61,061 nt of DNA from Thermoplasmatota archaeon. Lineage in GTDB: Archaea; Thermoplasmatota; Poseidoniia; Poseidoniales; Thalassarchaeaceae. Below, in pieces: positions 41,457 to 46,949 of this stretch; within the stretch, counting starts at the first letter, position 1; each line of letters starts with the position of its first letter. The translations under genes were made by a program, and so were the position numbers. The stretch spans positions 1-61,061 of the forward strand of contig JAYZLP010000002.1 in NCBI GenBank assembly GCA_036154155.1. Reading direction: 5' to 3'. The notes beneath the pieces were generated by a model. That model saw only the letters and a program-made list of their open reading frames with translations. It made no database searches and was not told the origin of the DNA.

Positions 41457-44400
41457 CTAATCCTCAAAGAGTGCTTCGATGTCTTCGTCGTCCAGAGCCT
41501 CTTCTACGGACACTGCCACATCCTCCGGGACAGCTTCGTCAACCTCTTCCTCGACCGTCTCGCCAGTAAGCTCCTCGAAAGCCTCTGCTACCCCCTCTCC
41601 AGAGAACCTGTCAACTTCGGATTCGACGCTTTCATAGGTCCCCTCCGACTCTCCATCATCTTCTTGAGTAGGCGAATCGGGGTTTTCCTTCTCCTTGCTG
41701 AAGGGGTCATATTGAGGATTGTCAAATGCATCGTCCATTGATATTCTCCTCCTACCTAGTGCCGGATCAGGCCTAGCTCTGCGGTCAGGCCCCCCCCTCT
41801 TCTGCAGAACCACAGCAGCGCCAATTACAACAATCAGGACGAAGGCCAGAATTATTCCATAGTCGGAGACAAACTCCCCCATGCTGAAGGGAGCCTCAAG
41901 AATCACTACAGTAAGTGTCACCGAAGCTCCGTCGCCCTCATCCAGAGCAGTCATTTTTATTGTTCTCGAACCATAACCGTTGAACGTCCACTCAATCCAC
42001 TGGCCTTGGATGTCTATGTCGTTCTCCGGATCGCCGTCACCATCGCTGTCTACAGCCGTGTCCATGTCCCAGTTGTACAGCATATTTGCCATATCGTGCT
42101 CTGAGTCCGTTGTCCCATTAGCGGTGAAGAATAACACATCCCCCTCTTGTACGTCCAAAAACGCACTGGAATCAGCCTTAGGAACCGGCTTGACGTTCCT
42201 AATATCTAGCGGAATTTCCACAGATGCCGTTGCGCCATCGTCATCAGTAACGTGGAAAATTATCATCTCTGGCGCAGTGGTGGCATCGGGCCAAGATCGA
42301 GTGAGGTGGCCCGACTCCAAGTCACAGTCATCCGTCGAAGTCCCCTCTCCATCACTGTTCGACAGTGGATCAAGGTCGAAGCACCTGGTTAGTGTGAGCA
42401 TGTCGCCACTTGTATCAGTCACCTGGATGAGGATGTCTACCAACGAGTCTTCTGCAGCGGGAAGTGGCGGAGAGATTGGTGAGATAGATGGCTCAATGTT
42501 CATCACTTCTATCGGAACAATAAGTGCCTCTGTACTTTCTCCGTCATCGTCGACAACCTGCAGTGTCGCGAGATGCATCCCGGAGGTGTCATAGATGTAC
42601 TCCATAGTACTCTTTCTTCCCGTTGTCTCCATAACGATGTCCGGATTATTCTCAGCATCAGGGGACCATATGTGCACTAGGGTATCCATGTCATTTTCAG
42701 AATCGTCAGCCCAACCCTCGAATCGGAGCGAATCCCCCTCATTCACAATGAAGACGCCCCTGCTGTCGGCTATCATTCGATTATCGCCCAGCCAAATCTC
42801 GGCTCTCGGGTTCGTAGGGGCAATGTTCCTGACCTCTATGGTCTTGGTCGAAGAAACGACGGCCCCGTCGTCATCCATCACTTCGACCTCAGCGGTGTAT
42901 TCGCCCTCTGATGTGGGCGTCACGGTACAGTAGAACCCAACTTGCCCCTCCTCACAAGGTTGCTTCCATAGTATGTCCACCGGTGCGGAGGGGTTCTGTG
43001 TGTCCAGGTCGCCAACGGAATCCTCGACATTGAACTCGATGGGGGAAAGCACTGGTGTCCACTCGTACTCAGAGTTGACTGTAACGTACGGCTCTCGATT
43101 AAGTATGGTCACTACCGACTCGCTCCAACTTTGGTCATTTTCATCATCTGTGATCACTAGCCTGATCGAGAAAACGCCGTCGTCGTCCCACGTATGCTCA
43201 TGGACACAGTCTTCCTCTGCAGATGAGGCATAACCCCCTTCCAGAGTCTCCACAATAAATTCGCATGAAAAATCCCCACCATCTGGGTCGTAAGAAGAAA
43301 GTCCGTTGAAGCTAACTTGGTCAAGAGTCAAAGATTGCGAAGGAGCGCTAAGGCTAGCCGTAGGGGCCCTACCGATGAACAACGAGAATGAACCGTGGTT
43401 GTTGCTCCTATTGCCGTCATTGTATACCTCCTCGTTGGGGTCGACGGTGAAAGATAGCGAGACATCGCCTATCGCCTGAGACTGAGGAACCATCCAGTCG
43501 ACCTCGACTCTTGACTGGCTGAGGCTGGAAAGTGGTGGCACAGAAACACTCTCAGAGGTCCCATCAGGTGCTTCTACCGACATCGTAGTAGCGGGAGAGC
43601 TCAGAATCCCCCTATTCTGAACAGGGATGCTGAATGTCAGCATGTCCCCCGGTATCGCGTTGAATCCTACTACGGAATCCAAGGTGGTAGTTTGATTGTC
43701 CCTAACCCTCTCTACCGTTACGCCCTCCGATCTGGCAATCAGGTCAACGGGGTAAGTGTCCGGGTCTATCGTTATTGTAGATGCGCCAATTATCTTCTGA
43801 TTTGGTATCCAAACAATCACTCCATGGCTCCCCGTGTCGGGACCGCCAATGGAATCATCGGACTCACTACCAGAGTTGAATGTAATTTCCGCCGAACCAC
43901 CTGAACCGGTCGTGAATGTCCTGACATCCTCTTCTATTCCATACCTGAACTCAATAGACTGGCCAGATACATCCTGATTGTTCTGAGTGACATTGGCGAA
44001 TACGGATTGATCCATGTCCAGGGGGGAAAGAGCGAATTCAAGATCAACCGAGATTTGCTTGCTCCTAGGTGCCGCTTGATACATGACCAATTCGTGATTA
44101 GCCAGGAAACCAACGCTTTGGGTGAACGAGGAGTAAACGTCCCCTCTCACAGATGGGCAAAACCACCTGTATCCAGTTGGATCGCCATTAGAATCATAAT
44201 TTGTGATGTTGTAAGATTGCTGACAGGATGCATAGCTGACACCAGGGGCGCCCCTGCTCACGACTTCCCAGCTAGACGACTCGTGTGAAGACTCATCAGC
44301 AGGAATGTCCACATAGTCGCTAGACCCGGTGTATTCTGTATCTTGATAGTAGTCCGTGGACCATTCGTCACCTACGTTCAGAGGGAAATCATACCCCTCT

Positions 44401-44948
44401 GTCGGTGGCGAGAATGTTTGCGAAATTACGAGATCCGCTACGTCTATGTTGATTGTCCACCAGAGGATTTGGTATTCGAAGTCTATGTCAATAGTAGCCT
44501 CTTGACTGATAGTGGCAAGGTCTGACGCCCTAATCAATTCTGTAGTATCTATTTCTACAACTAGGTCCCCCTCATTACCATCAAGCTCGATATCTTCAGC
44601 TTCGTAAGTTCCTACTGAATTCGCCTCATAGACTAGGGTGGATCTGTTGTCCACGTCTGCTAGGACATAGATGTCATCGATATTCTTGACCAGTGAACCC
44701 TCCAGAAAGTCAACAGTCGTACTAACACCAGAGGTCGCGATAAAGTCTCTTACGTCCAACTCTCCGTTGTACGTCCACCTGTCATTTATTCGCCATGTGG
44801 GTAGGTCGACGATTCCCGTATTCCTGGATGTCGAGTGGGTTTCCTGTTCACCCCCCAGGGCCTCTCTTTCTCCGTCAATCAGCAGTATACAGTACTGTGA
44901 AGATAGGAGAATCGCTAATCCAATTGCTATCGCCCGCGCGCTACGCAT
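41457..44948 (-). CDS. Large surface protein with multiple PKD-like repeats, a C-terminal TM and an acidic cytoplasmic tail
   Basis: Signal peptide from ATG 44948. Recurrent PKD-type motifs (SSYDPDGG, ITDDENDQS, VMDDDGAV, VVDDDGES, VTDDDGAT). TM helix YGIILAFVLIVVIGAAVVL, followed by a ~150-aa D/E-rich tail. Confidence 0.8.
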   Translation of the reverse strand: MRSARAIAIGLAILLSSQYCILLIDGEREALGGEQETHSTSRNTGIVDLPTWRINDRWTYNGELDVRDFIATSGVSTTVDFLEGSLVKNIDDIYVLADVDNRSTLVYEANSVGTYEAEDIELDGNEGDLVVEIDTTELIRASDLATISQEATIDIDFEYQILWWTINIDVADLVISQTFSPPTEGYDFPLNVGDEWSTDYYQDTEYTGSSDYVDIPADESSHESSSWEVVSRGAPGVSYASCQQSYNITNYDSNGDPTGYRWFCPSVRGDVYSSFTQSVGFLANHELVMYQAAPRSKQISVDLEFALSPLDMDQSVFANVTQNNQDVSGQSIEFRYGIEEDVRTFTTGSGGSAEITFNSGSESDDSIGGPDTGSHGVIVWIPNQKIIGASTITIDPDTYPVDLIARSEGVTVERVRDNQTTTLDSVVGFNAIPGDMLTFSIPVQNRGILSSPATTMSVEAPDGTSESVSVPPLSSLSQSRVEVDWMVPQSQAIGDVSLSFTVDPNEEVYNDGNRSNNHGSFSLFIGRAPTASLSAPSQSLTLDQVSFNGLSSYDPDGGDFSCEFIVETLEGGYASSAEEDCVHEHTWDDDGVFSIRLVITDDENDQSWSESVVTILNREPYVTVNSEYEWTPVLSPIEFNVEDSVGDLDTQNPSAPVDILWKQPCEEGQVGFYCTVTPTSEGEYTAEVEVMDDDGAVVSSTKTIEVRNIAPTNPRAEIWLGDNRMIADSRGVFIVNEGDSLRFEGWADDSENDMDTLVHIWSPDAENNPDIVMETTGRKSTMEYIYDTSGMHLATLQVVDDDGESTEALIVPIEVMNIEPSISPISPPLPAAEDSLVDILIQVTDTSGDMLTLTRCFDLDPLSNSDGEGTSTDDCDLESGHLTRSWPDATTAPEMIIFHVTDDDGATASVEIPLDIRNVKPVPKADSSAFLDVQEGDVLFFTANGTTDSEHDMANMLYNWDMDTAVDSDGDGDPENDIDIQGQWIEWTFNGYGSRTIKMTALDEGDGASVTLTVVILEAPFSMGEFVSDYGIILAFVLIVVIGAAVVLQKRGGPDRRARPDPALGRRRISMDDAFDNPQYDPFSKEKENPDSPTQEDDGESEGTYESVESEVDRFSGEGVAEAFEELTGETVEEEVDEAVPEDVAVSVEEALDDEDIEALFED

Positions 44949-44989
44949 ACCGGTCTCTGGGCGTAACGCCCAAATCAATGTGTCTAAGA

Positions 44990-45721
44990 TTACATTGCCC
45001 TGTAGTCTGGTAGGTCAGCAAGCTCGTCCTGAATAAACTGGACCGCCTCAAGAATCTCGTCCTTGTGCCTAGCCCCTGTTATCACCATCTTTCCACTTCC
45101 GAAAATTAGGCAAACTACCTTGGGATAGTCAAGTCTGTATATCAGCCCGGGGAACTGCTCGGGTTCATACTCGACCTTGTCGAATGGAAGATGGAATGTC
45201 AGGTTGTTTAGGTTCAGCCTTCTGGGGAGTGCTGCTAGCGGCTCTCCTTGCTTGATCCCCCTGATTCTCGTATCCTCTTCTTCCACTTCTTCATCGGTAG
45301 CGGCCCTAATCCCGCCCCCGTCAACATCGATTACTTTGGTGTTGATGTCATCCATCTTAGCTACTCCATCGTAGTCTTCTGGGAAGAACAATGAGTATGT
45401 TGCCACCATGTTCTGGACCTCAATCTCCACATCTTTTAGGTCCCAAGTGGTTATTCCGGCAGCCCTTAGATCACCAATCATCCTCTCTATCCCTGTCTCG
45501 ATGTTTGCTTGGTTCTTGCCACCGGTGCAAACCGCACGACCGGACCTAAACATCAGTATCGCGAGCTTCGGGTCGACCACTCTGTAGACCACACCAGGGA
45601 ATTGTTCTGGCTCATACTCGCAATTGAGTTGGATTGCAATATCTGGCAGGTCCAACTCCTCGGCAACTCTTGTCGATGCTACGACATTCACAACTGTAAG
45701 ACGCTCCTCGTCACTAAGCAT
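44990..45721 (-). CDS. tbp: TATA-box binding protein with an insertion in repeat 2
   Basis: Two TBP repeats (NVVAS...CEYEPEQFPGVVYR...FRSGRAVCTG and QNMVAT...VEYEPEQFPGLIYR...FGSGKMVITG). The protein is 243 aa, whereas I expect about 180-190 aa for archaeal TBPs. Confidence 0.9.
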   Translation of the reverse strand: MLSDEERLTVVNVVASTRVAEELDLPDIAIQLNCEYEPEQFPGVVYRVVDPKLAILMFRSGRAVCTGGKNQANIETGIERMIGDLRAAGITTWDLKDVEIEVQNMVATYSLFFPEDYDGVAKMDDINTKVIDVDGGGIRAATDEEVEEEDTRIRGIKQGEPLAALPRRLNLNNLTFHLPFDKVEYEPEQFPGLIYRLDYPKVVCLIFGSGKMVITGARHKDEILEAVQFIQDELADLPDYRAM

Positions 45722-45743: not shown

Positions 45744-45750
45744 TTATAAA
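45744..45750 (-). promoter_or_regulatory. Candidate TATA box of the tbp gene (TTTATAA on the minus strand), centred about 26 nt upstream of the ATG
   Basis: The minus strand reads CCTTTATAAGAAGAATATAAGTGCGCGACC-ATG. This spacing would give a leaderless or near-leaderless mRNA, as is common in archaea. Confidence 0.45.
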
Positions 45751-45795: not shown

Positions 45796-46767
45796 TCATG
45801 TCAGAATATTGACCCCATCTGCGCCTAGTTTGGAAATTAACGGCCTGCCACCAGCAATCTCGATTGCCTCAGCGACTCTTCGAGGATCTCTAGTAAGGGA
45901 GACCATGCACCCCCCTCCTCCGGCCCCAGTTAGCTTCACTCCAAGCGAATGAGGCCTTGCTGCCTCGATTAGACTCTCTAGCTCCGGGCTGCTGACATCT
46001 AGTGATTTGAGCCTCTCGTGGCATGCATTCATTGCGATTCCAACCCCTTCAAGATTCCCAGCAGAAAGCGCGGCCAACCCTGCATGGGTGATTTTTCCTA
46101 TGGCCTCCATTTCCGTTTCTTTAGAGGGTTCTTTCTGGAGGAGGCTCGCAACCCCGGCTACCATCCGGCCGGTAGGGGAGCCAATCCCAGTGAATCCAAG
46201 CACTATCCATGCACCTAGCCCTTCAGGCACGATGGCCCTGCTTATCGACCAAGTCCTCTCGCCCTCTGGAGTTTCTAGACTGGCATCGAAAATATGTGTG
46301 GTTCCACTTACTAGTTCCCCCGAGACAACAACACACCCGCCCAAGGCGCTCGTCGCAGTATCGGTGGGGCTCGCCCTCCCCTTCTGCGCAATAGCCTCGG
46401 CAGAGTGCCCCATCCTAGCAAGTCCAATCCTGTCGAGTTCGCCGTCAGGGTCGATATGGAATTGTAGCGCTGCTCCCATCGCGTTAGAAATCGCAGCGGA
46501 AGAACCAAGTCCAGCAGCCGAGAAAAGACCGCTCTTTACGTCTATTTCCAGTGGCACCCCGTTGTATTTGAAAACGTCCCTGAGTATATGCGTGATGTGA
46601 GGGTGGCGACTCGGGTCAAAATCCATCCCCTCTATCGTCCATTTGGAAGACTCCCTGATTGAAACCTCCACTCCAGCGTCTATGGCTACTGCAACAGCGG
46701 GGTGCCCATAGACCACAGCATGCTCCCCGAAGAGTATACATTTTCCCGGAGCGAACGCACGCGCCAT
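45796..46767 (-). CDS. mvk: Mevalonate kinase
   Basis: APGKCILFGEHAVVYGHPAVAVAI, GLGSSAAISNA and KLTGAGGGGCMV. ATG 46767 was chosen; the longest ORF begins at TTG 46815. Confidence 0.85.
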   Translation of the reverse strand: MARAFAPGKCILFGEHAVVYGHPAVAVAIDAGVEVSIRESSKWTIEGMDFDPSRHPHITHILRDVFKYNGVPLEIDVKSGLFSAAGLGSSAAISNAMGAALQFHIDPDGELDRIGLARMGHSAEAIAQKGRASPTDTATSALGGCVVVSGELVSGTTHIFDASLETPEGERTWSISRAIVPEGLGAWIVLGFTGIGSPTGRMVAGVASLLQKEPSKETEMEAIGKITHAGLAALSAGNLEGVGIAMNACHERLKSLDVSSPELESLIEAARPHSLGVKLTGAGGGGCMVSLTRDPRRVAEAIEIAGGRPLISKLGADGVNILT

Positions 46768-46949
46768 GATGCTCGCTGAGGCATAGGGGAAATGAGGGTT
46801 GGGTTCTGAAAACAATCGGTTCTATAGACTCGGTGTAGTAATTTGCATCTACTCTCTCAATTATTACCTGTTGCTTTAATTATTGCACCTGCCTCAAGGA
46901 CACGCCGACACCCCAGAGGCCAGTAGATAGAACGGTGCGAGGTTTTCTC

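Follow-up and report, generated by a model that had tools for sequence, protein, structure and literature searches.

The sole canonical TATA-box binding protein (TBP) gene found in the genome of a Marine Group II archaeon of the order Poseidoniales encodes a protein of 243 aa in which both repeats are intact, but the second is expanded by an insert of 55 residues with a net charge of −9 (F112–P166; 45224..45388, minus strand) within its S1′–H1′ loop. This insert consists of two layers, a stalk of about 20 aa that is found throughout the order and an acidic tip of 34 aa that has only a partial range. On balance, we consider it probable, if only somewhat so, that this is a single canonical TBP with a selected two-layer insertion that serves as an accessory contact or regulatory surface, dispensable for basal function.

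TBP is among the most conserved archaeal and eukaryotic proteins, usually with a compact core. Marine Group II archaea, which rank with the most abundant archaea in surface seawater, are uncultured, and therefore their basal transcription machinery is known from sequence only. The insert is a lineage-specific change to this normally compact transcription factor, and no prior description of it was found in the literature; no TBP insert is mentioned in passages of PMC7221094 and PMC7289017, and the supplementary alignments of the former might include such sequences.

Results

The tbp gene and its neighbourhood

The window, i.e. the whole 61,061-nt stretch of DNA that was analysed, carries the tbp coding sequence on the minus strand at 44990..45721 (stop codon included), as deduced from the ORF listing, the translation and Pfam; its 243-aa product is named P0001 here. 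The host belongs to family f1 of the Poseidoniales. A profile search of the source genome (1.30 Mb in 60 contigs, 92.8% complete) revealed this gene as the sole PF00352 locus, so the lack of a second tbp copy, which a preliminary description of the sequence had noted for the window, extends to a second canonical tbp in the source genome.

A TATA-like element, TTTATAA, read from the sequence at 45744..45750 on the minus strand, ends 22 nt upstream of the tbp ATG and is probably the gene's own promoter, with a leader that would be short or absent. Upstream of tbp lies a GHMP-kinase gene (mevalonate-kinase-like; 45796-46815, minus strand), and a GHMP-like frame is likewise found upstream of tbp in a genome of family f3 (L035). 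The latter locus was dropped as a candidate for a long-form TBP because its apparent long frame is due to a run of N. On the downstream side, a gene for a PKD/CARDB surface protein of 1173 aa with an acidic C-terminal tail (41457-44978, minus strand) has its TTG start 12 nt past the tbp stop codon.

An intact TBP core

Pfam detected two PF00352 repeats in the product (E 5e-51), both of them in one frame on the genome, which bears out the earlier assignment of the ORF to a TBP of 243 aa in which neither repeat is disrupted. Repeat 1 (residues 8-86; 45464..45700, minus strand) is canonical according to Pfam, the genome search, the alignment and the AlphaFold2 (AF2) model, and its S1–H1 loop is ordinary and short in the alignment, so that it has no counterpart of the insert, as had been claimed. 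In repeat 2, strand S1′ (residues 100-110, including QNMVAT; 45392..45424, minus strand) was assigned by DSSP on the AF2 model (E100-110), and the remainder of the repeat from H1′ to H2′ (45014..45232, minus strand), with EYEPEQFPG intact, corresponds to Pfam profile positions 12-84. In the profile search of the genome, the second PF00352 match also begins no earlier than profile position 12.

Residues N12, N104, F41, F58, F190, F207, E186 and E188 were invariant in an alignment of 33 sequences; we take N12 and N104 to be the central Asn residues, and F41, F58, F190 and F207 to be the DNA-kinking Phe residues. Two glutamates in the stirrup of the C-lobe are presented as TFB/TFIIB contacts in a passage of PMC7221094, and by our own reading they correspond to E186 and E188. 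Judged from the alignment, the putative DNA-kinking and TFB-contact residues are unchanged in P0001.

The AF2 model of the whole protein had a mean pLDDT of 91.4, and a Foldseek search with it produced 44 matches at E ≤ 0.001, every one of them a TBP chain or a fusion. Against single-chain solved TBPs, the target-normalised TM-score (TMt) was 0.82-0.93, whereas the score normalised to the query was only 0.61-0.67, because the insert is absent from all solved TBPs. Canonical archaeal TBPs (M. jannaschii 2z8u, P. woesei 1pcz/1ais and S. acidocaldarius 1mp9) have the same two-repeat saddle, and phmmer matched solved archaeal TBPs with E-values from 6.9e-44 to 3e-34, but their solved chains have 181-198 aa and none spans the insert, their S1′–H1′ loop being of about 3 aa compared to 57 in P0001.

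When the NCBIfam TBP models were used, P0001 fell under every curated cut-off (the best scores were 191 bits vs. 255 and 170.4 vs. 181), the score being lowered because the match is split by the insert, and a cluster close to P0001 (P0004) is publicly labelled 'hypothetical protein'. Therefore, the insert leads to under-annotation of these genes. The product is a member of the TBP family, and the long S1′–H1′ loop is a variant feature that does not argue against this membership.

Position and architecture of the insert

The preliminary description had located about 55 extra residues at 45224..45388, between S1′ and H1′ and in repeat 2 only, and these coordinates proved to be exact. By codon arithmetic, F112 falls at 45388 and P166 at 45224, and hmmalign to a TBP profile of 184 positions yields a single insertion of 54 aa at column 111. 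QNMVA and EYEPEQFPG are spaced 76 aa apart in P0001 vs. 22 aa in 6/6 TBPs from Thermoplasmatota other than Poseidoniales, one of them from a genome of the sister order; these six proteins have 179-184 aa, so that canonical relatives are indeed compact, as had been stated. When compared by phmmer with the M. jannaschii TBP (2z8u, E 6.9e-44), residues 5-123 and 178-237 of the query were aligned and the middle was unmatched.

The preliminary description is to be corrected in that the insert is not a single block; the alignments revealed a nested arrangement, in which the stalk of about 20 aa is found order-wide and the tip of 34 aa is inserted at its end. The N-terminal half of the stalk (residues 112-123; 45353..45388, minus strand) carries the motif [FHY][FY]PEDYDG, its C-terminal half (residues 158-166; 45224..45250, minus strand) the motif G[ED]PLA..P, and the consensus of the whole stalk is [FHY][FY]PEDYDG...G[ED]P.A..PR. 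By eye only, the stalk shows a brief resemblance to H1′ or the EYEPEQFPG segment, from which no origin by local duplication is claimed.

The acidic tip (residues 124-157; 45251..45352, minus strand) has no counterpart in the short-form TBPs of the order. The latter share with P0001 a core that is 84-91% identical and the 20-aa stalk, with the motifs YPEDYDG and EP.AG.PR, but lack the 34-aa tip, with a spacing of 42 vs. 76 aa. The motifs DD.N..V[IV][DE], [IL]R.AT[DE]EE and RIRG are conserved in the tip, and the acidic run DEEVEEED is found within the insert. Comparison of 36 distinct inserts revealed that R139 and E145 are invariant and that D143 and E144 are nearly so, with the variable positions at the turn of the predicted hairpin and beyond the helix. 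No Pfam family matched the 64-aa segment with the insert, and an ESM Atlas feature search with the insert returned TBP clusters alone, with scores (≤ 0.87) that reflect the flanking residues.

Selection on the insert and its presence in RNA libraries

The possibility of an assembly artefact had been raised together with the insert. The insert, whose frame is continuous, was found in independent assemblies from several sources and in a single-contig genome of 1.6 Mb (G025). As the synonymous sites were saturated when all pairs were considered (pS ~0.85), dN/dS was calculated from the 18 of 595 pairs in which synonymous change was unsaturated, and the values obtained were lowest for the core (0.009), followed by the stalk (0.018) and the tip (0.055; columns 123-157), which indicates purifying selection.

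Transcript evidence had also been proposed as a check. RNA-library contigs from four runs, corresponding to four marine libraries from four studies, covered 45194-45598, and with it the insert, colinearly and without indels or joints, although these are contigs, for which contaminating DNA is possible and strand and transcript ends are not given. Among the variant letters that these contigs show within the insert, 7/9 are on third codon positions. As judged from these comparisons of sequences, the insert is shown to be real, translated and selectively maintained. Purifying selection would, however, also act on a folded decoration that is neutral in itself but is carried by an essential protein.

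Predicted structure and charge

In the AF2 model of the whole protein, the block-mean pLDDT was 88-94 over residues 111-170. The insert is predicted to form two strands (125-133 and 137-140) arranged as a beta-hairpin, a short helix (143-147) and another strand (154-156), with isolated bridges at residues 112, 120, 161 and 166, and this model suggests that the two halves of the stalk pair with each other and that the tip sits on them. When the insert was folded alone, with an alignment of 36 rows, the mean pLDDT was 51 and the secondary-structure elements were as in the whole protein, from which we infer that the insert would be a module whose folding relies on the core of TBP. The high pLDDT of the whole protein could in part derive from its deeper alignment (106 vs. 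36 rows).

Position 229, in helix H2′, is occupied by F in 27/37 long forms, by Q in 7/37 and by I in 3/37, whereas I is present in 16/16 of the others; this co-variation among related sequences is a hint of a contact between the tip and H2′. Regarding charge, the net value is −20 for the whole TBP, −17 to −18 for tip-less Poseidoniales TBPs and −5 for the TBPs of other Thermoplasmatota. As the tip-less proteins already reach −17 to −18, acidity is a trait of the whole protein and not of the tip.

Distribution across the Poseidoniales and beyond

A sample of 121 Poseidoniales genomes was searched, 118 of which had a TBP match, and about 60 of the genes were translated. A stalk of at least 20 extra residues was present in every Poseidoniales TBP that was read and in 0/6 of the TBPs from other Thermoplasmatota. 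Among the matches listed, an unbroken match through the insert was found in 51/118 Poseidoniales genomes, with a very uneven distribution between families (49/58 in f1, 2/59 in f3 and 0/1 in f2). The spacing fell into classes of 22 aa (6/6 outgroups), 42, 48, 50, 75/76 and 81-92 aa, and the length added in the longer classes is located at the hairpin turn or past the acidic helix. The stalk-only spacing of 42 aa, in proteins of about 204 aa, is that of most of family f3, of genera g2 and g3 and of part of g9 and g10. Genera g9, g10 and g17 each contain long as well as short forms, and in g10 the cores of both forms are nearly identical in sequence. The spacing of 75/76 aa is retained in those genera whose genomes are smallest (1.2-1.7 Mb), which, as these are related lineages, is no more than suggestive.

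The long-form TBP of family f3 has 255 aa and an f3-type core, and is found under the name Poseidoniaceae on contigs of up to 2.0 Mb; therefore, the long form is native to this family. All of the 120 homologs listed were 87-97% identical to P0001, with lengths of 237-283 aa and a query coverage of at least 96%, the nearest being named as TBPs of Marine Group II, Thalassarchaeaceae or Poseidoniales; one homolog cluster comprises 723 contigs. In a tree of TBP cores, 26/47 inner branches were open, and the state of the insert changed nine times on the free tree, whereas the well-supported branches force a single change. As this tree is poorly resolved, gains and losses of the insert states can be neither counted nor polarised.

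To cover other lineages, 109 near-full-length representatives of clusters at 50% identity were aligned with hmmalign. Insertions of at least 8 aa between S1′ and H1′ were found only in P0123, P0129 and P0153, all of them with the Poseidoniales-type motif, whereas in the lineages without this motif the insertions are confined to the inter-repeat linker. P0181 had been placed by hmmalign among the S1′–H1′ insertions and was rejected, as inspection by eye located its insert in the linker. The extra residues are a normal feature of the TBPs of the Poseidoniales, but not of archaeal TBPs in general. P0129 and P0153, of 201 aa each and with 51% and 47% identity to the query, respectively, have a stalk of 19-20 aa with the motif YP[EN][ED]YEG, and judging from these sequences the stalk may be older, or wider in its spread, than the order sampled.

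TFB paralogs and a second TBP-fold protein

The source genome encodes two TFBs. TFB1 is canonical, with 308-309 aa, whereas TFB2 (G000:C20:66962-67855; L067 1189-2211, minus strand) is divergent, being 40% identical to TFB1 where the two align, and is extended at its N-terminus by a strongly basic segment. Most Poseidoniales genomes have both paralogs, irrespective of whether their TBP is of the long or the short form. For TFB1, continuous matches (up to residues 1-309) with 86-100% identity were obtained wherever the gene was whole on its contig, with any state of the insert, and no change in its length was found across the order. When TFB1 columns that track the insert were searched for in three within-genus contrasts between long and short forms, the internal fixed differences found numbered 2, 0 and 2, none of them shared.

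A divergent two-repeat paralog with the TBP fold, of 173-190 aa, was detected in 119/121 Poseidoniales genomes, and in 7/7 of the other genomes of the same genus as the source. Its relation to TBP was supported by hhalign with a probability of 97%, but most of the signature residues for contacts with DNA and TFB are missing. Outside the Poseidoniales, its profile matched ordinary TBP genes alone, and weakly. Examples are found at G008:C42:30730-31260 (L089), G015:C1:39022-39540 (L091) and G009:C27:40897-41442 (L092). The paralog was not found in the source assembly, where the region around it in another genome of the genus aligns with the opening bases of contig C58 of G000; the paralog therefore falls in an assembly gap of the source genome, and is expected just beyond the start of that contig.

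Discussion

The functional part of the explanation that we favour is put forward tentatively, as a possibility that falls somewhat short of probable: the insert would offer, on the convex or lateral side of TBP, an accessory surface for contacts or regulation that is dispensable for basal function. From the topology of the fold and the behaviour of position 229, the module would sit on that side of the C-terminal lobe, near H1′ and H2′, where it could act as a protein-contact or regulatory surface that tunes assembly of the pre-initiation complex and not promoter recognition. Tip-less TBPs with near-identical cores occur in sister species of the same genera, which is why the basal function of TBP is taken not to depend on the tip, and its apparent repeated loss argues that any function of the tip would be non-essential.

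A rival explanation is a decoration without a dedicated function, that is, a neutral but structurally constrained loop expansion that became fixed in the order, grew at its tip and would be conserved for the sole reason that misfolding of the insert would harm an essential protein. The length or presence of the tip differs within g9, g10 and g17, and the tip is absent from most of f3; the cores of long and short forms are nearly identical, TFB1 shows no co-variation with the insert, and variation falls at the hairpin turn and beyond the helix, a pattern like that of tolerated loops. However, for a dispensable segment the tip has a low dN/dS, charged positions (R139 and E145, and nearly D143 and E144) are kept across the 36 distinct inserts, and the 75/76-aa form persists in small genomes, with the reservation made above about related lineages, so that we regard neutrality as possible but rather unlikely. 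A further step beyond the accessory surface would be a docking or regulatory subdomain specific to the Poseidoniales, which arose with the TBP-fold paralog and contacts this paralog, the basic tail of TFB2 or another regulator, in such a way that repeated loss or resizing of the tip retunes initiation. We find this doubtful; if it were true, the Poseidoniales would have a modified initiation apparatus, with global initiation retuned between sister species. As to selectivity for TFB, the preliminary description had proposed that the insert could modulate the interaction with TFB, and a module that touches TFB near the C-terminal stirrup could affect affinity and favour one of the two TFB paralogs over the other. 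The insert is in fact located in the lobe that binds TFB, and the basic extension of the second TFB could pair with the acidic module, but TFB1 is continuous and 86-100% identical whatever the state of the insert, no TFB1 column is fixed-different in all three within-genus contrasts, both paralogs accompany long and short forms, and the stirrup glutamates are unchanged, all of which makes such a role improbable.

Electrostatics could suggest yet another role, in which the acidic module is directed towards the concave face or the DNA backbone, as an autoinhibitory DNA mimic or an electrostatic tuner that decreases non-specific binding. The net charge of the insert, with its DEEVEEED run, and a loop that emerges from the saddle's central strand would fit with this, and in eukaryotes TAND1 of TAF1 and the latch of Mot1 are acidic segments that occupy the concave face of TBP, in trans or from other proteins. 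The insert resembles these segments in being acidic, but binding to the concave face is known for the eukaryotic ones only. Moreover, AF2 models the insert as compact and confidently placed, not as a flexible acidic tail, and tip-less TBPs are already far more acidic than those of other Thermoplasmatota, so we judge this role very unlikely. Finally, the probability that the segment is an artefact or a removable element (an assembly error, an intein or an intron) is negligible, given that independent assemblies from several sources share it, that its frame is continuous under purifying selection, and that RNA-library contigs, in which contaminating DNA is possible, are colinear with the gene; for an intein in particular, the segment has no Pfam domain and lacks intein-type junction residues, as it starts with FFPE and ends with AALP followed by RR.

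The accessory surface that we favour can be set beside other modules of the transcription machinery. The domains SI1–SI3 are folded, lineage-restricted modules in surface loops of the bacterial RNA polymerase, and the parallel with the TBP insert is an analogy of kind alone, as the protein and the fold are different and there is no homology. A passage of PMC7289017 refers to SI domains. The long, intermediate and short alleles that occur naturally in close relatives constitute a tractable natural experiment, and the insert opens the question of whether regulation makes use here of a TBP surface that model archaea leave free.

Additions of other kinds were also observed in this protein. In two tip-less TBPs of genus g9 (L038 and L039), a basic N-terminal tail of 35-42 aa, rich in Lys and Ala, would be present if an upstream ATG were used, and the long-form TBPs of the same genus do not have it. 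P0212, P0181, the TBPs of genus g3 and P0122 resemble P0001 in carrying lineage-specific additions in a conserved TBP, but their additions are in the inter-repeat linker between H2 and S1′ and not within a repeat. Those of g3 are of 554-560 aa, with an in-frame insertion of about 350 aa in this linker (L033 730-2391 and L034 710-2389, both on the minus strand) for which Pfam detected no family. A TBP of family f2 (L047) has 20 extra residues at the linker position used in g3, and P0122 (452 aa; 14 contigs of up to 127 kb) combines a related linker insert of about 210 aa with an S1′–H1′ tip.
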